A stretch of DNA of 64,000 nt from a virus, in the IMG/VR virus record IMGVR_UViG_3300037222_000116, positions 1 through 64,000 of that record; one strand, written 5' to 3'. The translations under genes were made by a program, and so were the position numbers. Position 1 is the stretch's first letter. Every line of letters begins with the position of its first letter. The notes below the pieces were generated by a model. The model saw only the letters and a list, made by a program, of their open reading frames with translations, was not told where the DNA came from and did not search any database. Below are positions 15,741 to 55,260 of this stretch, in pieces.

Positions 15741-16676
15741 TCATAGCTCAGGCATCTTCTGCGAGCGACAGATCGACCGCACCCGCTTGCGCACGAACTC
15801 CAATCGCTTCGCAAGCGCGGGCAGTGTCCTGCTGTCTTCGATCAGCTCGTCAGGGAAGTCGTTGAAGATGATGTCGGCGTTGCGAAGTGCATAACCAGCC
15901 ACAGTACAGTTGCCACCGTTGGCGTGAGTCAAAGCACTTTGAATTTGATCTACAAGCTGGTTTCGCTTGTCGCCGTACTCTTTGAGGGCTTCTTCTTTGC
16001 CTTCTTCTTTGCCCTCTTCGTGGCCTTCATTGTATTGCTCGACGAGATCGCTCTCTAAGGTATCGTTGTCGATGCACTTGTGATCGCTGTCTGAACAACA
16101 GGTGTTCTCGTCGTTTGAACAGAAATCGTTGCTCTCATACATCGACTCTCGTTCCATCTCGGAACCGCGCTCTTCGGCGCGTTCGATCTTACGGCGCATC
16201 TCACGCTGACAAGGATTGTCACTGTCGTCTTCATCGATCAAGACATCGCAATCGGGTGATGCCTCGTCAGCGGCCTCTTCACGAGCGACACGCAGAGCCT
16301 CTTCGCCGACGAGAAACCGAGCGTCCTCGAAGCCTTCATCGTAAGCGGCCTCGAAGGCTTCACGATGCTCGGGAGCGAAGCGTCGCTGACCTGCAATTCG
16401 GCGATGAGCACCCCGACCCGGCCTTGCCCAGAACTCGAACATCACCTGCGGGTCGGATGATTCAGGAGCAACGCCATACTCGGGGCGTTCAAACTCAGGT
16501 TCATCAGGATGCCCCGAGCCACCGCCGCTGTACTCCCACGCCATCCGACCGTCACCGAGTCCACGAGACACCCTACGGCGACGTGGCTTGCTACTCAGGT
16601 ACGTCCCGCCGAAGGCAAGAGCGAGCAGCCCGATGAACGGGACGACGATGCTCAGTATGCGAAAGGTTCTTGTCAT
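15741..16676 (-). CDS. N-terminally anchored acidic Cys-rich protein
   Basis: N-terminal TM, RRRRVSRGLGD, acidic core, ends CRSQKMPEL. Confidence 0.7.
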   Translation of the reverse strand: MTRTFRILSIVVPFIGLLALAFGGTYLSSKPRRRRVSRGLGDGRMAWEYSGGGSGHPDEPEFERPEYGVAPESSDPQVMFEFWARPGRGAHRRIAGQRRFAPEHREAFEAAYDEGFEDARFLVGEEALRVAREEAADEASPDCDVLIDEDDSDNPCQREMRRKIERAEERGSEMERESMYESNDFCSNDENTCCSDSDHKCIDNDTLESDLVEQYNEGHEEGKEEGKEEALKEYGDKRNQLVDQIQSALTHANGGNCTVAGYALRNADIIFNDFPDELIEDSRTLPALAKRLEFVRKRVRSICRSQKMPEL

Positions 16677-16993
16677 CGGCGGCGTGGGGCTCTGCGACCG
16701 ACTCTACCAAGATCAGGAAGCTGCTGCTTCCGAGGCTGCTTGCCTGCACAGCCTCGCTTGGCCCATTCCTCGTCGAGAACCCACTGATCGAGGTTGCGCT
16801 GAAAGAAGCTGTCAAGGTAGCCGCTGTCGTACATCCCACGCTTCACGGGAACCCGCACCTTGCTCGGATCTCGTTTCCACGTCTTGACTTGTCCGGTAAC
16901 ACGGACCCTCATGGGCGTCCCGTCAGCATTGCGCGCGAAGCAATGGTAGACGACCTGACCGTGACGCAGCCGCTTGGCTTCTTCGAGCGTCAT
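16673..16993 (-). CDS. small beta-barrel-like protein with LPDLG tag
   Basis: ends CAGKQPRKQQLPDLGRVGRRAPRRR; ATGA-type coupling. Confidence 0.75.
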   Translation of the reverse strand: MTLEEAKRLRHGQVVYHCFARNADGTPMRVRVTGQVKTWKRDPSKVRVPVKRGMYDSGYLDSFFQRNLDQWVLDEEWAKRGCAGKQPRKQQLPDLGRVGRRAPRRR

Positions 16994-17172
16994 CGGCGTC
17001 GGCGTCCTTGACCGAGATCAGGAAGCTCCTGCCGACGGCCACGCTTCAGGCAGGCATCAGGCGTCAACTCCCAATGCTCGACTTGCTTCATGTTGGTCGA
17101 ATAAAGGGTCGTCGCCCAACCCTTCAAGCCGATCTCGAAGTGTCCTGACGGTGAACCGCGCACGTACTTCAC
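16990..17172 (-). CDS. small protein with LPDLG tag
   Basis: ends CLKRGRRQELPDLGQGRRRR. Confidence 0.7.
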   Translation of the reverse strand: MKYVRGSPSGHFEIGLKGWATTLYSTNMKQVEHWELTPDACLKRGRRQELPDLGQGRRRR

Positions 17173-17498
17173 GGCTTGCCGAGGTCAGGGAGCTTCTGCT
17201 TGCGCTTGGTTGTCCTCTTGCTGCATGCGCCTTTCATTACGTCTTCGGCGTTGCGCATCTCGCGCAGCAACTCGCGGCCTCGATCCCGAACAGCCTCCGC
17301 GCCCTCCCCGGCTGACAGCGCATGCGCCCACGCTTCCCCGGCGTACTCAGCAGCGCCCACCAACGATGTCCAGCGTTCACTGCACGAGCGCTGTGGATCG
17401 CGCGCGGACTTCAGCGCATAGCGTGCATGCTCTGCCTTCTCCTCGAAGAGAAGTCGATGCTGTACTGGACTACCACCAAGAGGATTGTGCTCACTCAC
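17169..17498 (-). CDS. two-Cys helical protein with LPDLG tag
   Basis: NPLGG near N-terminus; ends CSKRTTKRKQKLPDLGKP. Confidence 0.7.
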   Translation of the reverse strand: MSEHNPLGGSPVQHRLLFEEKAEHARYALKSARDPQRSCSERWTSLVGAAEYAGEAWAHALSAGEGAEAVRDRGRELLREMRNAEDVMKGACSKRTTKRKQKLPDLGKP

Positions 17499-17507
17499 AA
17501 CGCCTCC

Positions 17508-18074
17508 CTACCAACCCATGTACGTCTGCGGCTGAATGATGCGCGGGCCGTAGACGATCTGGTGTCCGTCGAATTCGAGTCCTGCTCTCGGGGCGTGCGG
17601 CGGCAGCGTGAAGGACTTGCTGAAGCCGATCGTCCAGTCGATCGGAAGCCAGCGATCCGGGTTCATCTTCGGGTAGGCGATCAGCGGGAAGATGTGCGCG
17701 TAGGGTCCATTGGCTTCGTTCTTTGTCACGGCTCCCTTGACGCCGAAACCATTTCCCATGGCGAGGGTAGCAATGAGTGTAAAGCCGTCGTCGCAGTCAC
17801 CACCCCGAAATTGCAACGTCCTGCGGGCACTCTGGTAGGTGTCATACCCGGCGATGTCACCCGTGTACCGGATGTTCTTCGCCATGAAGAGGTTGATCGC
17901 TTCCAGCTCACACATCGAATCCCGCCACGGACAACCGTGCGTGATCGCCAACGCGAGCTGGCGACTGATCGCGGGGTCACGGATGGACTCGTAGACCATC
18001 TTGCGGATCAGCTTGATGCGATCCTCGATGGACTTGGGCTGCCACTCCTGCATACGCATGTTGCCGACGGGCAT
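17508..18074 (-). CDS. transglutaminase-like cysteine protease
   Basis: RTLQFRGGDCDD (Cys), YAHIFP (His), WLPIDW (Asp) in canonical order. Confidence 0.8.
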   Translation of the reverse strand: MPVGNMRMQEWQPKSIEDRIKLIRKMVYESIRDPAISRQLALAITHGCPWRDSMCELEAINLFMAKNIRYTGDIAGYDTYQSARRTLQFRGGDCDDGFTLIATLAMGNGFGVKGAVTKNEANGPYAHIFPLIAYPKMNPDRWLPIDWTIGFSKSFTLPPHAPRAGLEFDGHQIVYGPRIIQPQTYMGW

Positions 18075-18083
18075 TGGCGTCCT

Positions 18084-18347
18084 CTACGTCAGCTTGCGCT
18101 GAAGGCGAATGGTCAGCGCCCGAGCGTGGGCGCGCAGGTTGGGATAGCGGGTTGCGCCGACATCGCCGTCGATCCGACCAAGCGCGTAGACGGCTTCGAT
18201 CAGCACGGGCAGTGCCTCATCAGACGGCAATCGCTCAGCAGACTGCAACATCTGCTGAACCTCCAATGCCATGTTCCCACCGCTCGGCATGGACGAAGCC
18301 TCCCCGAGCGAGTAATTACCCCCAAGAATTGTAATCCCTCGTGTCAT
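18084..18347 (-). CDS. small protein with GITILGGNYSLG leader
   Basis: leader shared with 18344..18667. Confidence 0.65.
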   Translation of the reverse strand: MTRGITILGGNYSLGEASSMPSGGNMALEVQQMLQSAERLPSDEALPVLIEAVYALGRIDGDVGATRYPNLRAHARALTIRLQRKLT

Positions 18348-18655
18348 GGGATTGGTCGCAACACATGAGGATCGACGTAGAAGACAGAGCCGATCGTCGG
18401 CAATGCCGTCTCTCGGTCGATAACAACCGTCGCACGCAGTCTGGGTGCTTCTCCTGCGACGCGGTCGATGAACACAACACGCACGCGCCCCTCAAGCCGT
18501 CCTCCACGACGCGGACTGTTCCACCACACACGGCGACCAACAATAGGAGACGCGAGCCCGTTGTCTCGCTCTTTCTCCCACTGCCATTGATCCTCCATGG
18601 CACTACCCGTATCGGGAAACCCGAGCGAGTAATTACCCCCAAGAATTGTAATCCC
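18303..18655. repeat. 36-bp exact direct repeat (18303-18338 and 18620-18655)
   Basis: CCCGAGCGAGTAATTACCCCCAAGAATTGTAATCCC twice; encodes GITILGGNYSLG on minus strand. Confidence 0.95.
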
Positions 18656-18667
18656 GCTGCGAGGCAT
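18344..18667 (-). CDS. small protein with GITILGGNYSLG leader
   Basis: leader followed by SH3-like beta pattern. Confidence 0.65.
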   Translation of the reverse strand: MPRSGITILGGNYSLGFPDTGSAMEDQWQWEKERDNGLASPIVGRRVWWNSPRRGGRLEGRVRVVFIDRVAGEAPRLRATVVIDRETALPTIGSVFYVDPHVLRPIP

Positions 18668-18670
18668 GGG

Positions 18671-19237
18671 CTACGCGTAGCTCCGCGAGCGCTTGCGTCG
18701 ACTCCGATACGGAGGGTTGGACGTCAGCATGCGCCCCGAACCATGCATCGCAGAAACGCTGCGTGACTTGAGTGCGTAGCCGATCCCCAAGACAAGTAGC
18801 CCAGCAATGCCAATGCCGCCGACCCACGGCAGCCACGCAGGCATGTCGTCTTGTGGCGGGCCAACAGGAGGACCATATCCGCCGCCATGCGAAGGAACGT
18901 GCTGGGGCAAGTTCGGCGGCGGCGCAACACCAGACGCAGCGAACATCTGCGAGGTCACGAACGCCGCCTTCTTGCCGATGTCAAGAAGCAGGCAGCAGAT
19001 ATGCGACGCGGGCAGATGCCGCTCAACGCTCTTCTCGGCTTGCTCGTACTGCGAGTAAATCGCCTCGACGATCGTCTCGAATGGCTTGTGCCTGTTGTTC
19101 TTCTGCAACACGCCGAAGACATCGAGCATCTTCTGCACGGCGGCTTCACCCGTGAAGCAATCGGATTCAATGCAGAACGGGCCACCACCGGGGCCATTCG
19201 AGGGACCATCAATCGTGAAGACGTTTCCGAGGGCCAT
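18671..19237 (-). CDS. membrane protein, paralog of 19240..19707
   Basis: MALGNVFTIDG, CIESDC, CC, C-terminal TM and basic tail. Confidence 0.7.
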   Translation of the reverse strand: MALGNVFTIDGPSNGPGGGPFCIESDCFTGEAAVQKMLDVFGVLQKNNRHKPFETIVEAIYSQYEQAEKSVERHLPASHICCLLLDIGKKAAFVTSQMFAASGVAPPPNLPQHVPSHGGGYGPPVGPPQDDMPAWLPWVGGIGIAGLLVLGIGYALKSRSVSAMHGSGRMLTSNPPYRSRRKRSRSYA

Positions 19238-19239
19238 GG

Positions 19240-19707
19240 CTACGCGTGCCTCCGAGCGGACAATCGACGACGACGTGAACCACGCAGCGGCATGCCCTTC
19301 TGGGTCCGGTAGACGTTCACGCCACCCCAGATCAGCGCCCCGACGAGTCCGAGCCCGAGAGCCCACTTGACGACACTCATCCACGATGACGCCGTATTGA
19401 GCTTGGGAGGAATGCGCGATCCCATGAGCGCCGTCAACGCCTGCGCTTGCTCACCGAGCTGCTTCATCTGACAGCAACGCATCGCGTTCCAGACGTTGAT
19501 TTGCCCAAGCTGAGTCAGAATCGCCGTGACATCGCCACGGAACGAATTGGCCTTGGAAGGATCGCTGCGAGCGAGGTCGATGAAGACCGCCTTCATCTCG
19601 CCGATGGCGTTCTGCGCGTCGGTGCAATCGGACTCACCGCACGGGAGCCAATCACTCGCCCCGAGATCAGGCGCTCCGTCGATGGTGAACACGTTTCCGA
19701 GAGCCAC
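19240..19707 (-). CDS. membrane protein, paralog of 18671..19237
   Basis: MALGNVFTIDG, CGESDC, CC, C-terminal TM and basic tail. Confidence 0.7.
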   Translation of the reverse strand: MALGNVFTIDGAPDLGASDWLPCGESDCTDAQNAIGEMKAVFIDLARSDPSKANSFRGDVTAILTQLGQINVWNAMRCCQMKQLGEQAQALTALMGSRIPPKLNTASSWMSVVKWALGLGLVGALIWGGVNVYRTQKGMPLRGSRRRRLSARRHA

Positions 19708-19722
19708 GAGACGCCTCCAGCT

Positions 19723-20232: not shown

Positions 20233-20292
20233 CGACGCGCTCCCTCCCTCTCGATTTGACGCCTCCTCAAGTTACCACGTACCTTCTGACCC

Positions 20293-20883: not shown

Positions 20884-20903
20884 CTGCGCTATCTTCCTCG
20901 TTC

Positions 20904-21650
20904 ATGCCCGACCCGTCGCACTGGTCAAACCGCCTTGCACTCCTACACTCCTGCTCCGAAGGCGTCGCCTTCGCCTCGCAGCACGAAGACATCTTCTCCG
21001 TCTGGAAGCATTGCCAGCGTGGCGACTGGTTGCTCTGGTTGACGGCGAGACTCTGTTTGACCGAGGACGACCGCAGGCAAGTCATCGGTGCCTGTGTGAC
21101 GATCGCGCAAGCAGCTTTCGTAGTTCTCCCACCCGAAGAAGAACGCTTGAACGACGCGCTGACCATCGCCTACGCGTGGAGCGACGGCGCGGTCCAGAAA
21201 GACAAGTCGTCACTGCGACACGCGCTCCAGCTCGCGCTGAGCGCCAAGCGCGACCTCGACAAGATCGCCCCCGCCATGGGGGCTGCTGCCGCAAGTGTTG
21301 CAGCGACGCTCTGCGCGATCGGCGACGCCGAGCGCGCGTGGTTGCCCGATGATGGCAGTGTCCGATCGCCTGCCGTCAAGTGGGCTGAGGCGGCGACACG
21401 GCCCGCTGCGTGGCATGCGGCAAGTCTGAGTGCAGCAGCACACGCGCTCTTCTCGCCGCACAGCACCGCAGCACAGACCAAAGCGCAATGCCTCTCTGTA
21501 GCCGCCGACGCCTTCGCATCGAGCGCCGACATCGTGCGTGTGGCCTTCGAGGCTGACGAAATTCTTGAACCTCTGATACACTGGCAAGGCGGGCGACGCG
21601 AGCCCAATCATCGACAGGAGAAAGAAGCCCATGACTGCAATCCTCGCTGA
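20904..21650 (+). CDS. Ala-rich helical hypothetical protein
   Basis: WKHCQRGDWLLWL motif. Confidence 0.65.
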   Translation: MPDPSHWSNRLALLHSCSEGVAFASQHEDIFSVWKHCQRGDWLLWLTARLCLTEDDRRQVIGACVTIAQAAFVVLPPEEERLNDALTIAYAWSDGAVQKDKSSLRHALQLALSAKRDLDKIAPAMGAAAASVAATLCAIGDAERAWLPDDGSVRSPAVKWAEAATRPAAWHAASLSAAAHALFSPHSTAAQTKAQCLSVAADAFASSADIVRVAFEADEILEPLIHWQGGRREPNHRQEKEAHDCNPR

Positions 21651-22932
21651 CTTCGGGTCGCGCAACGGCAACCACCGCCAGTACGACCCGGCCAACATCT
21701 TCCTCGGCAAAGGCATCACCGACATCCTCGACCCGATCGGCATCACCAAGATGCTACCCGACCCGCTCGGCATCAAGGACAAGGTCGCCGGGATCACGAG
21801 CGGAGGCGCGGGCGGGCTCTTCAACAGCTCGGGCGGCGCAGGTGGCCTCTTCAACAACGGCGGCACGGGGCAGCAGACGCCTTGCTACCTGCTCGCGGCG
21901 AACGGCACCAAGCACCGCTGCAACGCCGCGGGCTTCGCCAACGCCTCGCAGTTCGGGCAGGTGCAGATGTTCCGCAACGGGCAGTCCATGGGCCTCGCGC
22001 AGCCGGGCATGTTCCCGCCCGCAGGCTACGGCGCTCCCGGCTACGGCGTCGCTCCCCCGCCCGCTTATGGCGGCTACCCGCCTCCGGGCGGCAGCTACCC
22101 GCTCGGGCCGAACGGGACGTGCCCGCCCGGCTACGTCCAGTCGGGCCTCTCGTGCGTCCCGGCGTCGCAGGCGCTCGCGCAGCGTCGTGCAGGTGGCGGT
22201 GGTGGGCGTGGCAGCAAACACGGCAAGGGCAAGCACGGTCGTCACCACGGCATGCACGGAGCCCTCGGCGACGCCTACGGCGACCAGCAGGACGCGCTCG
22301 CGCGCGTCCAGCAGGGCACGAGCGGCTACCCCGGCATGCGCCCGCCGCTGACCAATCCCGGCATCTTCACCGCCGATGAAGGCGGCACCTCGACGCCCGC
22401 CATGAACCGGCAGTACCCGATCAAGCCGTGGATGCGCAATCGTCGTCCTCCGGGGCTGCACGCGCAGGCGCAGCGCGCGGGCTATACGCAGGCCGACGCG
22501 GGCTACGCGCAGAGCGCGGCGCGAGAGGCCATGGCGAACATGGCGCGTCACCTCCATCACCACGGCGCGGCGCACGCGGCACACCACGCGCAGGCTCGCG
22601 CGGCGCACTACGGCTTCATGCAGCACGGCGGCGGATCGCCCGTGCAGGCCGCGCAGGACAACGTGCAGGGCAGCGGCCTCGGCTACCCGGTCGACTACCT
22701 GTCGATGGAGCTGAACCGCCAGCGCTACGGCGTGGCGATCGACCGCTATCCGGGCAGCAAGCCCGCCCTCGACATGAACGCGCTCACACGCGGCAAGATC
22801 AAGATGCCCGCGTGGATGGGCATGCGGATGCCGCCCGAGGGCGGTGCGCAGATGATGCCGTCCGGTGGCATCCCGACGGGATTGAATGGCCCGCGCGCGT
22901 CGCGCGATCCCTCGGCGTGGTGGAGCTACTAG
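21631..22932 (+). CDS. Gly/Pro/His-rich putative virion precursor protein
   Basis: 433 aa, strong codon bias, CPPG motif, RHHGMHGALGD. Confidence 0.7.
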   Translation: MTAILADFGSRNGNHRQYDPANIFLGKGITDILDPIGITKMLPDPLGIKDKVAGITSGGAGGLFNSSGGAGGLFNNGGTGQQTPCYLLAANGTKHRCNAAGFANASQFGQVQMFRNGQSMGLAQPGMFPPAGYGAPGYGVAPPPAYGGYPPPGGSYPLGPNGTCPPGYVQSGLSCVPASQALAQRRAGGGGGRGSKHGKGKHGRHHGMHGALGDAYGDQQDALARVQQGTSGYPGMRPPLTNPGIFTADEGGTSTPAMNRQYPIKPWMRNRRPPGLHAQAQRAGYTQADAGYAQSAAREAMANMARHLHHHGAAHAAHHAQARAAHYGFMQHGGGSPVQAAQDNVQGSGLGYPVDYLSMELNRQRYGVAIDRYPGSKPALDMNALTRGKIKMPAWMGMRMPPEGGAQMMPSGGIPTGLNGPRASRDPSAWWSY

Positions 22933-25216: not shown

Positions 25217-25226
25217 AGCGAACACC

Positions 25227-27261: not shown

Positions 27262-27269
27262 TGATGAGT

Positions 27270-43585: not shown

Positions 43586-43840
43586 ATGGCGAGTTGCAAA
43601 GTGTGTCTCGAACACCTGCGCAAAGATGGCACCTGCAAATGGGCTTGTGATCCAAAGCTCGCCAATCCATTCAAGCGCACACGCCCTGTCGGCGTCAAAG
43701 AAGTGCCTGCTGACCAGCGCGGCGCAACGTTCTCGGTGGCAGAGCGACAGAACATGAGCAACGCGGTCGCCAAGGTCGACAAGACCTACGCGAGCTGGAG
43801 CAATGAGATTCTTGCCCGGAAGAACCACGGCTCACGGTGA
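43586..43840 (+). CDS. small Cys-containing protein
   Basis: CKVC...CKWAC; coupled to polymerase. Confidence 0.5.
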   Translation: MASCKVCLEHLRKDGTCKWACDPKLANPFKRTRPVGVKEVPADQRGATFSVAERQNMSNAVAKVDKTYASWSNEILARKNHGSR

Positions 43841-46836
43841 GCACGGCAGTCGCTACGCCTGTTGTTCGCCTGACCGTCTTGCAGAAGCGTCTGCTCGATG
43901 ACGGGGCGAGATGCTGGGAGTGTCCTCTAGGGCGCGACGGCGCTCCATCCAAGCCTGTAGCTACACAATGGCACAGCAATGGTTCGCCAGCGTTGGCCTT
44001 GGTAGGGGAAGCGCCCGGCAGGAGAGAATGTCAAGTAGGTGCCCCATTCGTCGGCGCGAGCGGAAAAATGCTCGATACGGTCTTGAATCAGACCGAGATC
44101 CCACGAAACCAAATCGCCATCCTGAACTGCGCTGCTTGCGGTCCAATCCCATCTGCGGCTGACGACATCAAGCGTCGTGCGGTCGAAGCGTGCAGGCCGC
44201 GCCTGCTCGCTGAGCTGAACAGGCTTCAGCCCAAAGTCATTCTTGGGCTCGGTGCGAGCGCCCTGAAGTCTCTCTCGCCACAGCAGAAGAGCGGCATTAC
44301 CGTCCTGCGCGGTGCAATGCTGGACTTAGGTACTGACGTCGCGACCAAGTGGAAGCCGTCAGGCTTCTTTACAACTTTTCATCCGGCGCACATTCTTCGA
44401 GGCGGTGACGCCGAGGCCGAGGGACCGGGAGACGAGGGAAGCAGCGCCGTAGACCTCCTGTTCTACTTCTTCCTGTACGACGTCCTGAAGGCGTGGAACG
44501 TCGCGCAGGGCCTTGCGTCACCGTGGCGCGACGAATGTGACCTGTTCGTCCACAGTGAAGAAGGCAAGCTGTTTCGGGCGACGACCAATGCCACTGGCGC
44601 AGGCGTCGTTGGAGACGAAGCACACGCCGACGAGCTGATTGCTGCCGCACAGCGCCTCGCCGACGAAGCGCGTACCGAGGGCCGCTTTGCCTGCGACGTC
44701 GAGACAGACGGCAAGAATTCACTTCTCGCCAACCTGACTGCCATCGGCTTCGCGACGACGTTGGGCGGCTTGAGTGCGACGTGGGAGGCATGGCAGCGCG
44801 TACCGCAGGCGCTCGGGATCATGCGCGAACTGCTCGCTGATCCACATATCCACATCGTTTTCCACAACCGGACCTACGACACCTGTGTCCTGCCACGACA
44901 CGAGCTGCCGGTGCTCGGCATCGTCGACGACACGTTGCTCTTTCACCATGCAGCGTTCCCCGGCCTGCCACACAAGCTCGACCAAGTAGCCACGCAGTTT
45001 CTCATCACGCCGCCGTGGAAAAACGAATTCCGAAAGGGCACAAAAGACTTCGCGACGTTGGTGCTTTACAACTTCAGAGACGCGCACGCGACAGCATTGT
45101 TGGTTGGGCCGTTGATCAACATGATCAAGGCCCACAAGACCGAGAAGGTCTACGAAGTCGACCGCCAGTGTGCGGGCGTCGCGACCGAGATGCGCAAGAT
45201 CGGCTTCTACGTCGATCGCGTCGAGCAGAAGCGACATAGCGACATTCAGCACGCCCGCCTCAAGTACATGCGGGAGTCGTTGACCAAGAGCTTCACGGAC
45301 ATCGCTGAGCCATGGCGCGTCCAGCTCGCCAAGAACAACGCCAACAAAGTCAGGAAAAAAGACCCCGAGAGCTATCTCGACCGGGTTGCGATTCGCTATC
45401 GCGAGATCGCCGAGCGAGAGAAGAAGCCGACAGACATCGGCTTCTTCAAGCCCAAAGCCAAAGCAGACATCGTCGCTCTCTTTGAAGTGCTCAGGATTCC
45501 CTTCACGGCGTACACGAGTAAGGGCGCTCCGATCACAGACAAGAACGCAATGGAGCTGGCATCGATGCGCCACCCGTTGCTGCGGCAGTTGATTGACCTA
45601 CGAGAAGCGCAGCAGTTGCTCGCGACCTACATCGACGGTCTGCCAGTGATGTTCGATGGACGCCTGCACCCTGATTGGAGCGTGAATAAAGTCACTGGAC
45701 GATGGTCTGCTGGGAAAACCCAGAACGTCCCCAAGCAGGTGAGTAGCTGGCCCCCGGAGACGAATGACGATGGGACTTGGAAGAGGAAGAAAAAAGGCGC
45801 GTACATCACGCCGATCGAGAACCCGCGCTCGATTGTCTGCGCGCCGAGTGCGGCTCAAATTCTGTCACTCGGCTCGAAAGCGCATCCCGAAGTCCTGAGT
45901 CGTGCTCTCGAAGGCTACAGGCGTATGCTCTTCGGAGCTGACTCAGCCCAACAAGAGCTGCGCATCGTCGCGCTGATCAGTGGTGACAAGTTCCTGCTGG
46001 ACATCTTCAATCGTGGCGAAGACCCGCACGCCGCCTTCGCGCGAATCGCTTTCCCGAAGGTCTTTCCTCAGATCGAAGCTGAGCTGGCGAAGCACGGCGT
46101 CAAGCCCAAGGACACAGCATTCACCAAGAAGAAGATTGCTGAAGCGCAGAACGACATCGAGCGGGCGCATTGGAATGCTGTGCTGCGGCTTCAGAAGAAT
46201 TGGAGCAAGCTCCGCGACGTCTCGAAGAACGGCGAGTTCGGCTGCATCTACGGCGCAGGAGCCATGAAGATTTACGAGACATGGCGCATGCGTCTGCCCG
46301 ACGAGGAGACGCTGACTCTGTCTGATGCCGAGGCATTCTTCGAGACGTGCAACCGAGTGCTGGAGGGAGTCAACCGCTGGCGCAATCGGATGGAGACAGA
46401 CGCGAGATTGCGAAGAGAGATCCGAGAGGTCTTGGGATACCGGGTTCGACTCTTCCCGCTCGGGCACTTCAATCCCAATATCTGTTACAACTTCCCGGTC
46501 CAAGCCTTCGGCGCATCGTTGATTGCGAGGGCTATCTTCCGGTTCGTGGCGCTGACGCAGCCGTCGTGGCTCAACCTCGGGATGCTCTACAAGAACGGCC
46601 TGCTCGATGCCAAGTGGGTGAGTGACAGAAGAGCCGAGGGCTATGGTGATTGGAAGGCTCCTGTGTGGCTGTTGATCAACGGCCACGATTCACTGGTCGG
46701 TGAATGCGACGAGGAGGACGCTGCCAAAGCCGCCAAGCTGCTAGAGCTGGCAATGACGATGCGCGTGAACATCGGCGACGCGTCGATTCTCTTTCCCGCC
46801 GAGCCTGACGTCGGCGTTCGTTGGTCGGAGGTTTGA
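43837..46836 (+). CDS. polA: uracil-DNA glycosylase (family 4-like) fused to family A DNA polymerase
   Basis: GEAPG..E...PFVGASG, TFHPA; exo DVET, HN..YD, YN..DA; pol motifs DSAQQELR, RDVSKNGEFGCIYG, GHDS. Confidence 0.9.
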   Translation: MSTAVATPVVRLTVLQKRLLDDGARCWECPLGRDGAPSKPVATQWHSNGSPALALVGEAPGRRECQVGAPFVGASGKMLDTVLNQTEIPRNQIAILNCAACGPIPSAADDIKRRAVEACRPRLLAELNRLQPKVILGLGASALKSLSPQQKSGITVLRGAMLDLGTDVATKWKPSGFFTTFHPAHILRGGDAEAEGPGDEGSSAVDLLFYFFLYDVLKAWNVAQGLASPWRDECDLFVHSEEGKLFRATTNATGAGVVGDEAHADELIAAAQRLADEARTEGRFACDVETDGKNSLLANLTAIGFATTLGGLSATWEAWQRVPQALGIMRELLADPHIHIVFHNRTYDTCVLPRHELPVLGIVDDTLLFHHAAFPGLPHKLDQVATQFLITPPWKNEFRKGTKDFATLVLYNFRDAHATALLVGPLINMIKAHKTEKVYEVDRQCAGVATEMRKIGFYVDRVEQKRHSDIQHARLKYMRESLTKSFTDIAEPWRVQLAKNNANKVRKKDPESYLDRVAIRYREIAEREKKPTDIGFFKPKAKADIVALFEVLRIPFTAYTSKGAPITDKNAMELASMRHPLLRQLIDLREAQQLLATYIDGLPVMFDGRLHPDWSVNKVTGRWSAGKTQNVPKQVSSWPPETNDDGTWKRKKKGAYITPIENPRSIVCAPSAAQILSLGSKAHPEVLSRALEGYRRMLFGADSAQQELRIVALISGDKFLLDIFNRGEDPHAAFARIAFPKVFPQIEAELAKHGVKPKDTAFTKKKIAEAQNDIERAHWNAVLRLQKNWSKLRDVSKNGEFGCIYGAGAMKIYETWRMRLPDEETLTLSDAEAFFETCNRVLEGVNRWRNRMETDARLRREIREVLGYRVRLFPLGHFNPNICYNFPVQAFGASLIARAIFRFVALTQPSWLNLGMLYKNGLLDAKWVSDRRAEGYGDWKAPVWLLINGHDSLVGECDEEDAAKAAKLLELAMTMRVNIGDASILFPAEPDVGVRWSEV

Positions 46837-48585: not shown

Positions 48586-48678
48586 GGTATCTCCGTTGTC
48601 TCCATTGAGTACGGCAAGGTGACGATGTGAGCATGGTGTTGCAAAAGTAGCACGGGCACAGTAGCGTCCGCATCACAA

Positions 48679-51132
48679 ATGCGCGGGCGAGGTAGAGGCA
48701 GAGGACGAAGACCGATCTCGCGTACCCCCGCTCGCGTTTTGGCTGCACGCCCGCCAAGTATCATCGAAGCGCAAGAGCAAGAAGAAGAGAGCACGAAGAC
48801 CGAAAGCGTTTCGCTTTCATCACTTCCTCCGTTTGTTTCGCTCATACCGCAAGAGAGAGCCGACTTTTGTATTTGGACTGTCAGCATGGATCTTTGCTTC
48901 GCTGAGATCGTCATTGGACTGGCGGCAGCCCTGCGCGCGCTTGGCTTTGTGGTCGTCACCAGACAAGGCGGGGACGGGCACGCGCCACTTGATTGCGGGC
49001 GCTTGCTAATCATTGCCGGGAACGGACTCGACAACGACACAACTATCACCAAGTTGCCGAGAGACACGATTGTCTACCAGCTTGAGCAGTTCAACAGCCC
49101 GTGGCTCAAGCTGCCGCATTACATCAAGCTGTTGCAGCGCTGTGTTGTCTGGGATTTCTCACCGAGTAATGTTCGGATGCTGCGCAAGCTCGGATGCTCA
49201 CGCGTGCAGTTGTGCAGGATAGGCTATGCACCCGAGCTGGAACGAATCAATCACAGCGTCACGCAGGATATTGACGTCTTGTTCTACGGCTCGATGAACA
49301 AACGACGACAGAAGATTATCTCTCGCTTGCGCCAAGCCGGAATTGCTGTGACTGCTCCGTGCGAGGGTGGTGTTCCTTGTTATGGCAAAGAGCGTGACGA
49401 CCTGATTGCCCGGTCTAAGATTGTTCTTAATCTTCACTACTACGCCGATGCCTGCTTGGAGGTCGCGCGTGTCAGCTATCCGCTCGCCAATCAAGTTGTC
49501 GTCGTCAGTGAAAAGGGTAGTGACACTGAGCTGGATGATTTATTCGCCACCGGCATTGTCTTTGCCGACACCGATGATCTTGTCGAGATGCTTCAAATCA
49601 CACTGAACCAGAAGCGCAGCGAGCTTCGCGGGCAGGGTGTTCTAGGGCGGTCGGCGTTGCTCGCCATTCCACAGGTCGATGAGATTCAGCGCTGCTTGTC
49701 TCACGGGTATCATTGGGATGCTCTGGATGCTGTTCAATCGAGTGCCACGGTCCTGATCGGCACTGTTCAGTGGCGCCTTGAATCAACCCTGCGTTTGCTC
49801 GAACTACTGGAGCACCAGACGCGTGCTCCAGATCGCATTGTCGTTTGTCCTGACGGCTACGACGCCGCTGTGCTGGGAAAGTTGCAACGCTTCGCCCGGT
49901 CGATGTCGATTCCGACTCTCGTTGTCGAGCACGCGTGGTCGGTGCAAACGCCGCTGCATGGTCCGGGGGCTCGTTGGCAGACGATACAGACGCTCGGGCT
50001 GCCAGCGAGCGAGCTGATTCTCTGTATCGACGACGACATCTTGGTGCCCTCACAGTATGTTGCCAAGATGGCGACGGCGTGTGAGGAATACGGCGCCGTG
50101 AGTGCTATGGGAACCAATCCCAACGGTGACACGATAACGACTGAATCAGTCGCTTTGATTGCCGGGTGCAAGACATGGATCAGCGACTACGACGGCGAGC
50201 TGCGCAGCTTTGGCGCGGGCTTGTCGGCGATTCGCTTGGGCCTCCTGCATGGCCTCATGGAGATGCCTCTGGCGAGCGAGTATCTCGGCTACAACGGCCA
50301 CGACGAGATCCTGCTCGCTGCGCACCTGTGGCGTCAGAAAGTGCCTATCAGGTATGTCCGCGTCGACGGCATCAGCTTCGACAAGAAGCTCGCGTTGGAC
50401 GCTCGGGCAACGTATCGACACCGCGCCAGCGATGATCTAGAAATAAAGCTGTCGGCAGCTACCGGCTGGAAGCGCCCCGGCGCTGCGCGCCCGGCGCTCG
50501 AATCTGCCTTCACACACATCGCTCGCACTGATGGCTTCAATGTTGCTGGCGGCGGTGAGTCACTGTCGGGGCCGGGGTCGTCTCTCGCACAGACTGTTCG
50601 CTTGCGGGACGCGCTGCCGGGTGTCTTGCGCGAGCTGGAGGTTCGCTCGTTGTTGGACGCGCCCTGCGGCGACTTTCACTGGATGAAGGACGTGGCGCTT
50701 GACGGCATTGCCTATATCGGCGGCGAGATTGTCTCTGAGTTGATATGGCGAAACGTCCAAAAGTACAGCTCTTCGCATCGCAAGTTCATGCAGCTCGATA
50801 TTGTCTCAGGAGCATTGCCGACTGTCGATGCGGTCTTCTGTCGTGACTGTCTGGTGCATCTGTCCAATGCCGACAGCCTTTTGGCGCTACGCAACATGGC
50901 TTGGGCTTCACGCTACCTGCTCTTGACGACGTTCACTGATGTTCATCGAGTCAATCAGGACACGGTGAGCCCGGCATGGCGTGTTTTGAACCTGTGTCGT
51001 GAGCCATTCAATCTGCCTGCGCCACTGCTGCTCATCAACGAAGGCTGTTCAGAAGAGAACGGCGCCTTCGCCGACAAGTCGATTGGCGTCTGGAAGTCCG
51101 AGGATATTCTGCGCGTGCTGGATGGTGAGTAA
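48679..51132 (+). CDS. glycosyltransferase (GT-B) + GT2-like + SAM methyltransferase fusion
   Basis: DIDVLFYGS..R, SKIVLNLH..E..R; ILCIDDD; SGPGS, LLDAPCGDF.W, CRDCLVHL; start uncertain. Confidence 0.8.
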   Translation: MRGRGRGRGRRPISRTPARVLAARPPSIIEAQEQEEESTKTESVSLSSLPPFVSLIPQERADFCIWTVSMDLCFAEIVIGLAAALRALGFVVVTRQGGDGHAPLDCGRLLIIAGNGLDNDTTITKLPRDTIVYQLEQFNSPWLKLPHYIKLLQRCVVWDFSPSNVRMLRKLGCSRVQLCRIGYAPELERINHSVTQDIDVLFYGSMNKRRQKIISRLRQAGIAVTAPCEGGVPCYGKERDDLIARSKIVLNLHYYADACLEVARVSYPLANQVVVVSEKGSDTELDDLFATGIVFADTDDLVEMLQITLNQKRSELRGQGVLGRSALLAIPQVDEIQRCLSHGYHWDALDAVQSSATVLIGTVQWRLESTLRLLELLEHQTRAPDRIVVCPDGYDAAVLGKLQRFARSMSIPTLVVEHAWSVQTPLHGPGARWQTIQTLGLPASELILCIDDDILVPSQYVAKMATACEEYGAVSAMGTNPNGDTITTESVALIAGCKTWISDYDGELRSFGAGLSAIRLGLLHGLMEMPLASEYLGYNGHDEILLAAHLWRQKVPIRYVRVDGISFDKKLALDARATYRHRASDDLEIKLSAATGWKRPGAARPALESAFTHIARTDGFNVAGGGESLSGPGSSLAQTVRLRDALPGVLRELEVRSLLDAPCGDFHWMKDVALDGIAYIGGEIVSELIWRNVQKYSSSHRKFMQLDIVSGALPTVDAVFCRDCLVHLSNADSLLALRNMAWASRYLLLTTFTDVHRVNQDTVSPAWRVLNLCREPFNLPAPLLLINEGCSEENGAFADKSIGVWKSEDILRVLDGE

Positions 51133-51599: not shown

Positions 51600-51602
51600 G
51601 CC

Positions 51603-52211
51603 TTAACGCCGCTTGCGCGATCGGCGCGGCCCGTCGAGGTCGGGTAGCTCTTGGCGTCTTGGAGCCTTCTTGCCCTTCGTCCACGCAGGAGGCTCCCAGA
51701 GGCCGGGGCACATGAAGGCACCTTTGCCGCGCGCTGGATACTCGCCAGTCCTGATGATGCGCTTCAGGGCCTCATAATCACGGACGCAGGCAATGTTCTC
51801 CCAGCCAGTGTACCGCGTCTTGCGTTGCTCTTCCCGAGCGCGCTCTCGCCAAGGTCTGCCATCGTGTTCGGGATTGTAGGGAGGATAGGCAACTCCTGTT
51901 CCGAGGTGCTTGGCAAGTGCGTAGATTTGCCTGTCGGTCTGCGCTGACGTGTGGTGTTCATCGGGTGTGAGGATGTAGACGCGGTTGTCGGCGTCTCGAT
52001 AGGCGATCGGTGTCGAATAGTTGTAGCTGTAGGCGACAATGCCCATTCTGCCGGGATGTGCGTTGTCAGCTATCGTTTCTGTCCAGAAGCCGGGGTTGCC
52101 GTAATTGCGCCGCGGCTTGCATGACTTACCTTCGTCCCAGCACTTCAGGATCTTCTGGTAGTACGCGTGGGTGCCGGACCCCCATCCGAGCGCTGGTGCT
52201 CGACGAGCCAT
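51603..52211 (-). CDS. hypothetical protein with LPDL tag
   Basis: PALG near N-terminus; ends KKAPRRQELPDLDGPRRSRKRR. Confidence 0.7.
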   Translation of the reverse strand: MARRAPALGWGSGTHAYYQKILKCWDEGKSCKPRRNYGNPGFWTETIADNAHPGRMGIVAYSYNYSTPIAYRDADNRVYILTPDEHHTSAQTDRQIYALAKHLGTGVAYPPYNPEHDGRPWRERAREEQRKTRYTGWENIACVRDYEALKRIIRTGEYPARGKGAFMCPGLWEPPAWTKGKKAPRRQELPDLDGPRRSRKRR

Positions 52212-52217
52212 TGGAAC

Positions 52218-52583
52218 TTACTTCTTGCCGAGGAACGCGTTGGCGCGGGCGACCGCCACCAGCACTTCCGGCTTGGGTTGAGAGCCACGCAGGACGGTCT
52301 TCTCGATGGTCTGGAGCGCGACCATGACGACGCACGTCGCCAACTCGGGCGCGAGCGAGGTCAGCGTGCTCTGCTCGTTCGCCCACGCGCCTGTGTCGCC
52401 GAGCAGCGCGTTGACGGCGTTGTCGACGAGGGGACCGACGCTGCCGATCGTGACGTTCGCTGCACAGCCGAGCGTCGCGAGCCCTGCCTGCGTCAGCGTC
52501 GATTCCACCTGCGCCGTGTTGCACGTCGCACACGACGTCACGAAGAGGCAGAGGGCCGTCAGAAACCGATTCGGTGAGCGCAT
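52218..52583 (-). CDS. secreted/lipoprotein, possible lysis accessory
   Basis: signal peptide with Cys (FVTSC). Confidence 0.55.
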   Translation of the reverse strand: MRSPNRFLTALCLFVTSCATCNTAQVESTLTQAGLATLGCAANVTIGSVGPLVDNAVNALLGDTGAWANEQSTLTSLAPELATCVVMVALQTIEKTVLRGSQPKPEVLVAVARANAFLGKK

Positions 52584-52620
52584 GTTGAGCAGCTTATGCT
52601 ACTCGTGTAGGCTCTTGCAA

Positions 52621-53346
52621 ATGGGCAAGCCACGCCGACGCCGACGCCGGATGTTCCGAGGAGTAGGACGGCTCGGTGCGCCTGCCGTGCGCGTGCCGCC
52701 TGTTCACGCTCGCCAGCGCGGCGTCTGTCAGGTCATCCGAGATCCTGACACGCTGCTGGTTCGCCACGCTCTTCAGGACGAAGAGCTGGAGTCGATGTAC
52801 CTCGTCGACAAGAACATCCTGATCTTCGGCGATGAGAACTGCGTTGGCGAACCTGATCGGACCACGCACCTCGGGCCGAACTTCTGGATCGTCCACAACC
52901 ATCCGCTCGGGAGCCCACCGTTCCTGTCTGTCGCTGACGGCTGCTTCGCCAACTACCATTCTGCGCGTCGCATGGACGTCGCGGGCTTCATGCCGATCGA
53001 CGAGCATCACGCCGTTCGGGTCGTCATGGAGTTCCGACAGCGCAACGCTCGGAAGCGATGGCCTTGCGACGATGACGCCGACATGAACTCGATGATGCCG
53101 AACGACGGCAACATCGAGGTCAAGCAGTACATCGCTGATGAATACCCGCTCTACTTCGATACGGGGCGGCGACGGATTGAGCTTGCCAAGATGGACCGCG
53201 AGTTCCAGCGCGAGGAAGCTGAGCGCATCCGTGAAGACGAAGTGGAGAGGGAGCGAAGGAAGACCGCTCGATTCAATGACCTCGAAATCGACGGCGCTCG
53301 TCGTCCTCGAAAGCGCGTGAAGGCGGCACGTCGAGCTTCCCGATGA
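52621..53346 (+). CDS. JAB/MPN-like domain protein with basic termini
   Basis: upstream E, IVHNHP....S..D; RFNDLEIDGARR tail. Confidence 0.6.
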   Translation: MGKPRRRRRRMFRGVGRLGAPAVRVPPVHARQRGVCQVIRDPDTLLVRHALQDEELESMYLVDKNILIFGDENCVGEPDRTTHLGPNFWIVHNHPLGSPPFLSVADGCFANYHSARRMDVAGFMPIDEHHAVRVVMEFRQRNARKRWPCDDDADMNSMMPNDGNIEVKQYIADEYPLYFDTGRRRIELAKMDREFQREEAERIREDEVERERRKTARFNDLEIDGARRPRKRVKAARRASR

Positions 53347-53618
53347 CCAAGAAGGAATGGGATGGTCTGAAGGAGGGAGATACAATCTTCTTTTGCGCTA
53401 CGGAAGAGGGAGATTTTTTCGGATATGGCGATCGTGCGCGTGTTCGCGGATCACGGTGGACGACAGATGGTACTCGGGTACACGTAACTGCTGAAAAGCA
53501 AGGTGTTGTCGTTCTTCCTGTGCAATCAGCAAAAGCATGGATGCTCAAGCCATGTAAGAAACGCCCTCGCCGCCAACAGCTTCCTGACCTCGGACGCACC
53601 AGAGCACGCCGTCGATGA
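53343..53618 (+). CDS. small beta-barrel-like protein with LPDLG tag
   Basis: ends PCKKRPRRQQLPDLGRTRARRR. Confidence 0.75.
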   Translation: MTKKEWDGLKEGDTIFFCATEEGDFFGYGDRARVRGSRWTTDGTRVHVTAEKQGVVVLPVQSAKAWMLKPCKKRPRRQQLPDLGRTRARRR

Positions 53619-53932
53619 GCCCTCCGTCGTGGAAGCATATTGCACCGCAGCATCGAGAAGCCGTCCTGCGTGGGCTTGAGAAGGCCGCTCTCGCTGCCGA
53701 GAAGCACGCAGCGACGTTCGCCAGTGACGTCAACGTCAGGACGTTTCACGTCGAGCTGGCGAAAGCGTTTCGGGCGGCGGTAGGGAGACTCAACGAGGTC
53801 GACGCTGTTGCTGTTGGTGACGTCCCGCCCGGCTACGTTCCCGACGACAAGATCACTTCCGGCGACGTTTTGGATGTTGTCGCTGGGATGGCACGCGCAT
53901 TCGGCATGGAAATCCCGCCTCGGCGTCGTTGA
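53615..53932 (+). CDS. hypothetical protein
   Basis: ATGA coupling. Confidence 0.55.
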   Translation: MSPPSWKHIAPQHREAVLRGLEKAALAAEKHAATFASDVNVRTFHVELAKAFRAAVGRLNEVDAVAVGDVPPGYVPDDKITSGDVLDVVAGMARAFGMEIPPRRR

Positions 53933-54260
53933 GGTCGGGGAGCCTTTGCTGCCTCGGTCTGCTCTTCGCGCAAGCCTTCTCGGTGCGGTGCCAGTACTGG
54001 ATGTCTTGCGGATAGATTAGGGACTCGCCGCCCGTGTAATGCTTCACCACGCCGCGATACGAGTAACCTCTACGAAGAAGTTTGCGCGCTTCTGGCGTTG
54101 GGTCAGCGTCGTAAACAGCATTATGGAAGTCTTCCGCCGTTGATGCCTTGAGCGGTTTCTCTGCGAGCTTTGCACATTTCATGGCGTACCCGGCGTACTG
54201 CGGCCCGCAGTAGCAGATGCGGTCGCCGACTTTGACCTTCGCCCATTCCTTCTCGGTCAT
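53853..54260 (-). CDS. small beta-barrel-like protein with LPDL tag
   Basis: ACAKSRPRQQRLPDLN; N-terminus resembles 53343..53618. Confidence 0.7.
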   Translation of the reverse strand: MTEKEWAKVKVGDRICYCGPQYAGYAMKCAKLAEKPLKASTAEDFHNAVYDADPTPEARKLLRRGYSYRGVVKHYTGGESLIYPQDIQYWHRTEKACAKSRPRQQRLPDLNDAEAGFPCRMRVPSQRQHPKRRRK

Positions 54261-54517
54261 CGGCGTCTGCGCGCTTTGCCGAGGTCAGGGAGTTGCTGAC
54301 GACGAGGTCGCTTTCGTGGATTGCAGTCGACTGTCTTTACTTTGTACCAATCTCGGAAATCGTCGAAAGTGGTTCCTCGTTTCCAAGCGTCAGGGTGACT
54401 TGAGGCATTGGCGACAAGTGTAGCTGTGTGAGACGCGACCTTTTTCCATACGGTCGTTTCGCCTTCAACGAAGACAAAGCATGTTCCGACCGGGACCGCA
54501 CTGAATAGATAAGCCAT
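54257..54517 (-). CDS. small protein with LPDLG tag
   Basis: ends CNPRKRPRRQQLPDLGKARRRR. Confidence 0.75.
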   Translation of the reverse strand: MAYLFSAVPVGTCFVFVEGETTVWKKVASHTATLVANASSHPDAWKRGTTFDDFRDWYKVKTVDCNPRKRPRRQQLPDLGKARRRR

Positions 54518-55260
54518 CAGCGTCCTCGCCCCAATGTCATCGCCAAGGCAATCCCCAACCCAACTGCGACGGCTGCTGCGCTCCCGAGGTACACGCCGAC
54601 GGCGGCAGTCTCACGCAGGCCATTGCCGAGATGGTTGGCTCGCGCCAGCGTGAATGCTCGTCGTGCTTGCAGGCCGCTGAAACGTCCGAGGTCGGGGAGG
54701 CGTTGTTTGCGGGGACCGCGATGCTTGCGTAGCAACTCATCACCCTCTGAGCGTGTGAAGCTCTGAACTTGACTGTCCTCTCGGGCGTCTTCATCAGTAA
54801 TGTCGAAGGGGTTGTAGTAGACAGGGTGTAAAACGTATGCGGCCCATTCGGTATCTACATAGGACAACTGCATCGGACGTCCATTGATGACGACGTCGTA
54901 GCTTTGCCGTTTTCTAGCTACTCCGAGGTCGGGGAGTCGTTGTCGACGCGGGCGCTTCTTGTGCTCGTCTATCCATGCTTGCTCTATCTCGGCAGCTTTG
55001 AGATTGGCGAGCTTGGCAATCACAGCTTTCGAGAAAAAGTGATCGGTGATTCCTATCTCGCGTCGATAGCGTGCAGCGGCTTCTTTGTACCATTGCCGCC
55101 AGAGCTTCTCAGCCAATGCTGGATCGTACTTCTTGGCTTTGAGGAATTTCTCGGCATTCTTCTCGATGGCCTGCTTGCGCGCGTAGAGTTCGTACTCGTT
55201 CTCGGCATAGAGATCGAGTTCGTCAGCGGAGCGTTCCTCATCACGCGACAAAGCGGGCAT
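54517..55260 (-). CDS. polyprotein-like ORF: two domains each ending in LPDLG, plus C-terminal TM
   Basis: KKRPRRQRLPDLG and RGPRKQRLPDLG. Confidence 0.75.
   Translation of the reverse strand: MPALSRDEERSADELDLYAENEYELYARKQAIEKNAEKFLKAKKYDPALAEKLWRQWYKEAAARYRREIGITDHFFSKAVIAKLANLKAAEIEQAWIDEHKKRPRRQRLPDLGVARKRQSYDVVINGRPMQLSYVDTEWAAYVLHPVYYNPFDITDEDAREDSQVQSFTRSEGDELLRKHRGPRKQRLPDLGRFSGLQARRAFTLARANHLGNGLRETAAVGVYLGSAAAVAVGLGIALAMTLGRGR

Follow-up and report, generated by a model that had tools for sequence, protein, structure and literature searches.

A recurrent C-terminal peptide on diverse small proteins of an uncultured peat virus looks like an address or trimming signal for particle assembly

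The genome of an uncultured virus, IMG/VR record IMGVR_UViG_3300037222_000116 (87,902 bp, with direct terminal repeats and rated complete), carries a short peptide tag, Q-x-L-P-D-L-(G) with basic residues around it, which recurs at or near the C-terminal ends of small proteins of several kinds. The window analysed here is the first 64 kb of this record (positions 1 to 64,000), and coordinates are those of the window unless the genome is named. The tag looks like an address or trimming signal for virus-particle assembly, and its source is probably a tailless, membrane-containing virus of bacteria from peat. An initial annotation of the same DNA had proposed that the virus appends a modular tag to accessory proteins so that they are packaged and delivered; the tag is confirmed by our analysis, and its interpretation as a packaging signal is partly supported.

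A six-frame scan found LPDL nine times in the window, always within the tag context, and ten times in the whole genome, the tenth copy being at genome position 74810 (- strand) in the open reading frame (ORF) 74705..75358, outside the window. In the genome, any other order of the four residues (11 are possible) has between 0 and 5 occurrences. All ten copies read R-x-Q-x-L-P-D-L, followed by G in eight, by D-G in one and by N in one, and the position after the Gln is always Q, E, K or R. The initial annotation was right about the QxLPDL(G) core, but the tag is longer than it had described, with aromatic and Cys positions upstream; the consensus is an 11-residue P-R-[RKQ]-Q-x-L-P-D-L-G, often with Cys and Trp before it. 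Among nine aligned copies, Pro is found at -4 from the Gln in seven, with a Lys/Arg-rich patch upstream, Cys 8-11 residues before LPDL in six, and an aromatic residue 12-18 residues before LPDL, which is Trp in seven. Every copy has a Lys within 10 residues upstream of the Gln, and nine of the ten have basic residues on both sides of the motif. The distance from the stop codon is 3-11 residues in six copies, two have 25 (53853..54260) and 34 (74705..75358) residues after the motif, and two lie at domain joints of 54517..55260. Six genome matches to [LM]P[DE]L are not LPDL, and only one of them has Gln at -2: the degenerate CRSQKMPEL at the end of 15741..16676, which had been pointed out before and is indeed present.

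The conservation lies in the protein, as the initial annotation had argued from the codons. The six codons for the invariant residues R, Q, L, P, D and L make up 18 nt, and seven of these positions vary among the ten copies, all synonymously: the six third positions and the first position of Arg (CGN/AGR). None of the 11 residue-altering positions of these codons varies. As the invariant codons vary only synonymously, it is the peptide, not the DNA, that is under selection. Four copies end in CG(C/T) CGA TGA, which overlaps the ATG start codon of the next gene; this likeness of the junctions at the DNA level is due to translational coupling and not to the tag itself. In codon score, the own frame comes first of six in all ten tagged ORFs, though below the mean of the long genes, and their G+C content at third codon positions ranges from 0.42 to 0.68, both as expected for young accessory genes.

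The nine ORFs listed earlier for the window were all found in place with the C-termini given for them (Table 1), as were the two copies of the tag in 54517..55260. The copies lie on both strands, one tagged ORF on the + strand and the rest on the - strand, in two clusters at 15.7-17.5 kb and 51.6-55.3 kb. An Arg tail had been assigned to the tags, but 17169..17498 ends GKP and has none. A reservation is also needed for 53853..54260, since this ORF overlaps the convergent gene 53615..53932 (+) by about 80 nt; the overlap takes in the motif itself and part of the tail. A similar arrangement is seen in 74705..75358, which overlaps the convergent gene 74305-74799 (+) by about 95 nt; the overlap starts just after the tag, and nearly the whole post-motif tail lies inside it. 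In 54517..55260 the two tags are followed by a hydrophobic segment and a GRGR end, a layout that resembles a polyprotein in which the internal tags are joints ahead of a membrane anchor.

The tagged proteins had been described as eight mostly unrelated bodies. When the bodies were cut 10 residues before the tag and compared by BLASTP, only 53343..53618 and 53853..54260 matched each other below E 0.01 (E 5e-5). These two share the N-terminal pattern MT.xE..[LV][KR].G..[IV]..C with 16673..16993 (alignment A6), and 54257..54517 and 16990..17172 may be diverged or shortened members of this small paralog group. No similarity to the paralogs or to each other was found for 17169..17498, 51603..52211, the two domains of 54517..55260, 74705..75358 and 15741..16676, and the body of 74705..75358 has no homolog. 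Judged from these comparisons, three, perhaps five, of the bodies are paralogs and at least five body types are present, so that the description stands for several bodies and fails for the paralog group. The trimmed comparisons and the synonymous codon variation together bear out a portable peptide-level module on several unrelated bodies. For 51603..52211 an AlphaFold2 (AF2) model was built from a 3-row alignment; it is of low confidence (predicted local distance difference test score, pLDDT, 59.6), too weak for a fold search, and in it residues 182-202, which hold the tag, score below 50 in pLDDT and form no secondary structure.

The exact tag appears to be confined to this virus. None of 92 related loci (some 1 Mb altogether) has it, and the pattern QxLPDL occurs 0, 0, 0, 0 and 1 times in five full-length related records (77-104 kb) as compared to 10 times here, the single match being at chance level. 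A search of related viral contigs for the exact motif, suggested by the initial annotation, gave no tagged relatives beyond chance: the DNA pattern PRRQxLPDL has 14 loci in IMG/VR, all of one unrelated contig family or single chance matches, PRRQGLPDLA and similar, without Gly and Arg tail and without repeats. A profile of the nine tag regions, searched against 5.8 billion proteins (87-2000 residues, 8000 candidates scored), returned only six proteins of the virus itself, and a de novo search for recurring C-terminal 4-mers in the relatives found none. Relatives were also sought via 21631..22932, the enzyme discussed below and the polymerase, which gave none or one distant locus, and alignment A5 found none in IMG/VR. 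A loose regular expression (Q..P..hydrophobic.G and basic residues) was dropped as too noisy, with 93 matches in the relatives against 62 in reversed controls; it gave single plausible cases in loci L085-L087, L076/L077, L074 and L084.

A cognate form of the tag was found by another route. An exhaustive HMMER search with 51603..52211 gave two metagenomic homologs, P0100 and P0101, from contigs of about 1.4 kb, and this is the only tagged body with outside homologs bearing a cognate tag. Their bodies align with 51603..52211 through ...CPGLW.PP.W, and where the latter has ...RRQELPDLDG PRRSRKRR, P0100 ends ...ETQKPILG RGARRRRCKGGRYC and P0101, at the same position, ...VTQEPLLG GRRRRSR. The cognate tag is Q-x-P-[IL]-L-G with an Arg run. 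A homolog of the N-terminal domain of 54517..55260, at L027:17563-18048, has an N-terminal membrane segment and then KLPGLSG ARGRRRR, without a C-terminal tag. The initial annotation had asked whether the motif might be an integral part of one domain common to all bodies; these two cases, the outside homologs of the one body and the homolog of the other without a C-terminal tag, show that it is not. Conservation in related genomes, the other matter it had raised, was found in part, since the exact QxLPDL is missing from the five full relatives (bar the chance-level match) and the 92 loci, while the homologs of the 51603..52211 body keep QxP[IL]LG and an Arg run at the same place.

The relatives, which include contigs of 77-138 kb, also show what the tag may derive from. 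In 84 distinct related loci there are 66 likely real ORFs with a basic C-terminal tail. A Gly junction is present in 31 of these, and its P3 residue is Leu in 11 cases and L, M or I in 17; the reversed-sequence control gave only 13 ORFs of this kind, which does not suffice for a formal test. Judged by their sequences, the relatives widely show an L-x-G and Arg-tail junction and keep the enzyme, which suggests that the tag is a local form of this wider junction.

The genomic setting favours a link to the virion. Cluster 1, whose genes overlap by 4 nt, starts 10 nt after the enzyme gene and is part of a same-strand block with overlapping starts and stops that runs from the enzyme gene through a 623-residue protein to the capsid-like genes. 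Cluster 2 adjoins small protamine-like genes and a peptidoglycan-binding protein. Basic tails, with at least five Arg or Lys in the last 12 residues, are found in 18 of the 114 ORFs of the genome, but the replication block at 24.3-51.6 kb (24300-51600), which contains the primase-helicase, the SNF2 helicase and the polymerase, has none among its 30 ORFs (hypergeometric P 0.0024). The blocks in which tagged genes are found are of late or virion type. Tails read by eye have Gly directly before the basic run in 11 of the 18 (ALTG|A, HIEG|A, PLRG|S, EIDG|A, VYG|A, ALSG|S and five LPDL(D)G tails). What fills the slot from the enzyme gene to the capsid-like genes varies among loci L042 and L048 and this genome. 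A second kind of junction was also observed, in which A-R-R... comes after RF-x-x-[LI]-E-(I)-(D)-G; it occurs twice in the 623-residue protein and once at the end of 52306..53346, and the tails ...ERFKRLILDG PPRRRRR and ...ERFARLELDG ARRRRR in relatives are its cognates.

Family scans covered 29 ORFs: 10 large ones against Pfam, 10 tagged or neighbouring ones against Pfam and PHROGs, and 10 further ones against each library, 8 being common to the two sets. The 10 tagged or neighbouring ORFs gave no PHROGs match and, below E 0.01, no Pfam match except that of 17508..18074 to Transglut_core (E 2.7e-4, 21.6 bits, just under the curated cut-off of 23); the 10 further ORFs had no PHROGs match either. 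Homologs of 17508..18074 number 90, many on contigs of 70-105 kb and many carrying PF01841, and on the family core a Cys-His-Asp triad (C94, H127, D146) is invariant in 19 homologs. Two of the homologs, P0011 and P0017, are 63% and 57% identical to the enzyme and come from JGI contigs of 73.7 and 85.3 kb. The nearest sequence of solved structure, and the sole match, is the LapG-type cysteine protease 4u65_E (E 0.019). In the phage collection the only match is gp34 of SSIP-1 (Salisaeta icosahedral phage 1), with E 9e-7 and 32.5% identity over 61% of the query, a protein annotated as structural. The enzyme is a candidate reader or cutter of the junctions, as far as can be told from its sequence and place. 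A complex prediction of the enzyme with the tag region, run without controls, scored 0.01 against a mark of 0.32 and speaks neither for nor against binding. In the enzyme gene of two close relatives (L042:2415-4151 and L048:164-1282), ORF translations read by eye show an intein-like insertion exactly at the catalytic Cys, with the boundaries GGD / C...VVHN / CDDG in L042 and GGD / C...LASN / CDDG in L048.

We tentatively favour the reading that a clade-wide Arg-tail module has taken a lineage-specific form in the tag, and that this module directs proteins to the DNA core, where it is trimmed; the reading is quite possible although it falls short of probable. The module would consist of a short Leu-(x)-Gly junction and an Arg-rich tail, attached to many late proteins across the virus group. 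In this virus the junction would have grown to an 11-residue peptide; by spreading it would have reached small accessory proteins of five or more kinds, which occupy variable slots of late gene blocks. The protein would be retained on the viral DNA or a nucleoprotein core by the Lys/Arg stretches flanking Q-x-LPDL-G, and it would be built into the particle in this way. The conserved peptide would then be read by a virus-encoded factor, most likely the transglutaminase-fold enzyme next to cluster 1 acting as a protease. The enzyme would cut at the Leu-Gly junction and separate the folded body from the Arg peptide, in the manner in which adenovirus pVI gives pVIc.

Several points weigh against this reading. 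The DNA binding, packaging and cleavage of the tagged proteins, like the exact scissile bond and the identity of the reader, are things that we infer. The exact tag is restricted to one lineage whereas the enzyme is conserved across the clade, and for this reason an enzyme of conserved specificity is not sufficient to account for six invariant residues that are unique to the lineage. LPDLG has Asp at P3 and Leu at P2, where generic junctions have L, I or V at P3, and only the LPDLDG variant fits the generic form. The tag is kept without an Arg tail in 17169..17498. Six invariant positions in 11 exceed what most protease sites have and resemble a docking peptide. In L042, the closest accessible relative, the slot holds a 912-residue protein and no small tagged genes, and in L048 it holds several small genes of which only one has an LG and a basic tail (...NLLG KTRKR). 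Finally, the frame of a membrane-containing tailless virus is provisional, because the capsid fold assignment, which comes from a predicted model, is weak (Z below 8).

The strict conservation could also mean that the tag is never cut. Q-x-LPDL-G would then be a docking peptide for one receptor, a lineage-specific viral or host hub protein, gathering a changing set of small accessory proteins while the Arg flanks add affinity. Six invariant residues of 11, in a region that is predicted to lack structure, are typical of a peptide ligand, a lineage-specific tag beside a clade-wide enzyme fits a co-evolving pair of receptor and peptide, and internal copies and copies with 25-56 further residues are tolerated. 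We still consider this rather unlikely, as the receptor is hypothetical, the tag sits exactly where relatives have their generic L-x-G and Arg-tail junction, and the tagged genes are in late or virion-type blocks and not in an early one. It is also improbable, to our judgement, that the module acts by itself, the basic patch, LPDLG and basic tail binding nucleic acid or membrane and making any attached domain a component of the DNA core, with LPDLG as a mere rigid spacer or turn that is neither read nor cut. Such a module would agree with the basic residues on both sides of nearly all copies, with the Arg runs that end many other late proteins and with the protamine-like proteins at 56.2-57.9 kb, but a spacer needs no invariant R, Q, L, P, D and L kept through purely synonymous change, nor does this explain why 17169..17498 retains the motif without the tail.

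The triad of the enzyme is common to proteases and transglutaminases of this fold, and if it were a true transglutaminase the invariant Gln might be its acyl donor, for Gln-Lys isopeptide bonds or deamidation. The enzyme would then staple the changing accessory proteins to Lys/Arg-rich core or inner-membrane proteins, and in the tag a bacterial virus would have a portable signal, written by an enzyme, with the message "staple me into the virion". The Gln is invariant in all ten copies and kept in the cognates QKPILG and QEPLLG, and a Lys is always near it. The preferences given for TG2 substrates in the review PMC6265872 are QxP-hydrophobic-D(P), QxP-hydrophobic or Qxx-hydrophobic-DP. The two cognates fit QxP-hydrophobic, but Q-x-L-P-D-L does not, not being Q-x-P-hydrophobic-D, and the consensus is that of an animal enzyme and serves as an analogy only. 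Generic junctions in the genome and the relatives mostly have no Gln, and the one match of solved structure (E 0.019) is a protease of the transglutaminase fold, which leaves the donor role very unlikely. Least credible of all is a DNA or RNA element (recombination site, regulator site or gene-end signal) that is translated by chance. The four copies that run into the next start codon do show some conservation of the gene junction, but with all six third codon positions varying and none of the 11 residue-altering ones, and with the motif always in frame near the end of an ORF on both strands, this is close to refuted. A binding site on the capsid protein was considered and dropped; it would be unlikely if a membrane separates shell from core.

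The trimming that we favour has its closest parallel in adenovirus, where, according to PMC4246237, cleavage of pVI at IVGL|G releases a basic peptide of 11 residues, pVIc (GVQSLKRRRCF), and precursors and protease meet on the DNA. Both pVIc and the tag are C-terminal, Arg-rich peptides that start with Gly after a Leu, and in both systems there would be many precursors with short junction motifs, DNA-binding core components and a virus-encoded cysteine enzyme, which here is a candidate. The adenovirus protease AVP (adenain) cleaves at the consensus (M/I/L)-X-G-X|G or (M/I/L)-X-G-G|X. L-P-D-L|G of the tag agrees with the first form at P4 and P1' but has Asp instead of Gly at P2 in all ten copies, and adenain itself (peptidase C5, PF00770) has no match in the genome at E<=1. 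The virus differs from adenovirus also in that its candidate enzyme has a transglutaminase fold, its host is bacterial, its cleavage is putative and its motif has the extra invariant R, Q, P and D.

The initial annotation had compared the tag to the capsid targeting sequence of T4 and to the cargo-loading peptides of encapsulins, and both comparisons hold as a possible way of working but not as membership, since sequence, position and capsid type differ. The T4 sequence is N-terminal, about 10 residues long and removed by the head protease at L/I-x-E; it directs internal proteins into the head and binds the scaffold core inside an HK97-type head. Here as in T4, a single tag is carried by small proteins of diverse kinds from variable loci (five body types or more, a variable slot), but it is C-terminal or internal in all ten copies, has basic flanks and a different sequence, and no HK97 capsid, portal or terminase is recognised among the 29 ORFs scanned (Pfam, PHROGs). 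Encapsulin cargo-loading peptides attach to the inside of an HK97-fold shell. Like the tag, they are short, portable, disordered C-terminal peptides on unrelated proteins, which they address to a protein shell, as the tag may do; they differ in consensus and in the lack of basic flanks, and in the virus an inner membrane would probably separate shell from cargo.

SSIP-1 is membrane-containing and has two types of capsid protein, according to the review PMC6356626. It resembles the virus studied here in having, as a structural protein, the gp34 homolog of the enzyme that adjoins the tags. Its genome is half as large, no LPDL tag or Arg-rich tail was seen at the ends of 21 SSIP-1 coding sequences in an 18-kb stretch, and the capsid-like protein 8765..9484 has no tblastn match in it. 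The tag further recalls the sortase signal LPXTG, with L-P-x-x-G and a positively charged end, and in the case of 54517..55260 also a hydrophobic segment; it has Leu at the Thr position in all ten copies, nine of the ten lack the hydrophobic segment, and a sortase gene (PF04203) has no match in the virus genome. The bacterial beta-clamp-binding motif QL[SD]LF has L immediately after the Q and hydrophobic residues in positions 4 and 5, and the tag does not agree with it, having Q, E, K or R after the Gln in every copy.

Table 1. Tagged ORFs and neighbouring features. Coordinates are those of the window except in the row marked genome; aa, amino acids.
Feature	Coordinates	Strand	Length (aa)	Remarks
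Tagged ORF, small paralog group	16673..16993	-	106	ends ...EEWAKRGCAGKQPRKQQLPDLG RVGRRAPRRR
Tagged ORF	16990..17172	-	60	start and stop overlap adjoining genes; ends ...HWELTPDACLKRGRRQELPDLG QGRRRR
Tagged ORF, body unlike the others	17169..17498	-	109	ends ...KGACSKRTTKRKQKLPDLG KP, no Arg tail
ORF with degenerate tag	15741..16676	-	311	acidic Cys-rich body, N-terminal membrane segment; ...ICRSQKMPEL*, no Gly or tail
Tagged ORF	51603..52211	-	202	ends ...PPAWTKGKKAPRRQELPDLDG PRRSRKRR
Tagged ORF, sole + strand copy	53343..53618	+	91	ends ...AWMLKPCKKRPRRQQLPDLG RTRARRR
Tagged ORF	53853..54260	-	135	...YWHRTEKACAKSRPRQQRLPDLN, then 25 residues ending KRRRK
Tagged ORF	54257..54517	-	86	ends ...DWYKVKTVDCNPRKRPRRQQLPDLG KARRRR
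ORF with two tags at domain joints	54517..55260	-	247	LPDL at residues 109 and 188
Tagged ORF outside the window	genome 74705..75358	-		34 residues after the motif
Transglutaminase-fold Cys-His-Asp enzyme	17508..18074	-	188	10 nt upstream of cluster 1
ORF directly downstream of cluster 1	13834..15705	-	623	two RF..[LI]E(I)(D)G junctions; ends ...RFSHIEG ARRRRVQQRAPQRRRGARR
ORF inside cluster 2	52306..53346	+	346	motif HNHPLGSPPFLSVAD, JAB/RadC-like by motif only; tail ...RFNDLEIDG ARRPRKRVKAARRASR
Conserved jelly-roll capsid-like protein	8765..9484	-	239	AF2 model; in the block of the enzyme and cluster 1

The capsid-like protein 8765..9484 has homologs that adjoin the enzyme gene in 33 related loci. 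Its AF2 model is a beta sandwich (pLDDT 70.8), and the best structural match is the SPV1 capsid protein 6oj0_T (Z 6.8, root-mean-square deviation 3.6, 136 aligned), followed by HHIV-2 6h82_b (Z 6.3) and then HCIV-1 and PRD1; in Foldseek it matches P23-77 VP17 with E 0.12. The matched structures are capsid proteins of membrane-containing viruses. As every Z is below 8, the level which the tool regards as clear, the match is a lead and not a fold assignment.

Inside cluster 2, 52306..53346, whose stop overlaps the start of 53343..53618, is a second candidate reader of the tag, on the evidence of a motif. As compared to the JAB/MPN motif E...HxHx7Sx2D, its HNHPLGSPPFLSVAD has one extra residue in the spacer. 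The ORF has no Pfam match, the Prok-JAB model has no match to the genome at E<=1, and the atlas leads are weak (Prok-JAB 0.86, RadC 0.82). No homolog is present in the five full related records.

Among the other genes, Pfam identifies those for the primase-helicase, which is D5-like, for the SNF2 helicase and for 57941..59677 with its peptidoglycan-binding domains. The polymerase gene (43837-46836, +) encodes a family A DNA polymerase with 3'-5' exonuclease and an N-terminal fusion to a domain of the uracil-DNA glycosylase superfamily, and an 817-residue ORF at 48679-51132 (+), with the start MRGRGRGRGRRP, has no Pfam match. The protamine-like small proteins of the genome, at 56.2-57.9 kb (56219-57891, +), end in Cys-containing basic modules, ...GALSG SRRRCKYGKTKAGKCRKRPR, and P0100, the outside homolog of a tagged body, likewise ends in ...RRRRCKGGRYC after its tag. 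Upstream of the enzyme, the genes 18084-18347, 18344-18667, 18671-19384 and 19240-19707 (-) form two pairs of adjoining genes with near-identical leaders, ..GITILGGNYSLG.. and MALGNVFTIDG.., and similar gene starts, ..VFTIEGA.. and ..IITIEGA.., are seen in L042 and L041.

The virus was found in metagenomes of three studies, from peat and permafrost, and no RNA run was among those listed for it. The sequence over 51603-55260 is identical, with no variant letters, in peat metagenomes of 2018 and 2020, and identical also in a permafrost metagenome of 2017, where it is in pieces and some parts are uncovered. This identity leaves no natural variants by which selection on the tag could be tested. 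We considered and dropped a host among eukaryotes, in which the basic patch would be a nuclear localisation signal, because of the peptidoglycan-binding domains, the operon-style overlaps of starts and stops and the likeness of the enzyme to gp34 of the bacterial phage SSIP-1.

No published account of such tags was found in the full-text literature (main texts), and no paper there with LPDLG was on viruses, judged by titles. In the leading literature matches on a jelly-roll major capsid protein together with a maturation protease, the term "transglutaminase-like" was not found. If the tag does address or process proteins, it would be a compact and portable signal of 11 residues in a large, unstudied group of tailless bacterial viruses of soil, peat and groundwater. 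Variable accessory proteins would be loaded into the particle by a rule that can be read from the sequence, and the loaded proteins would be candidates for early host take-over or counter-defence. This would also imply that an adenovirus-like maturation, with basic-peptide precursors and a viral cysteine enzyme, extends to bacterial viruses with jelly-roll capsids, and virion cargo could then be predicted from metagenomic genomes.

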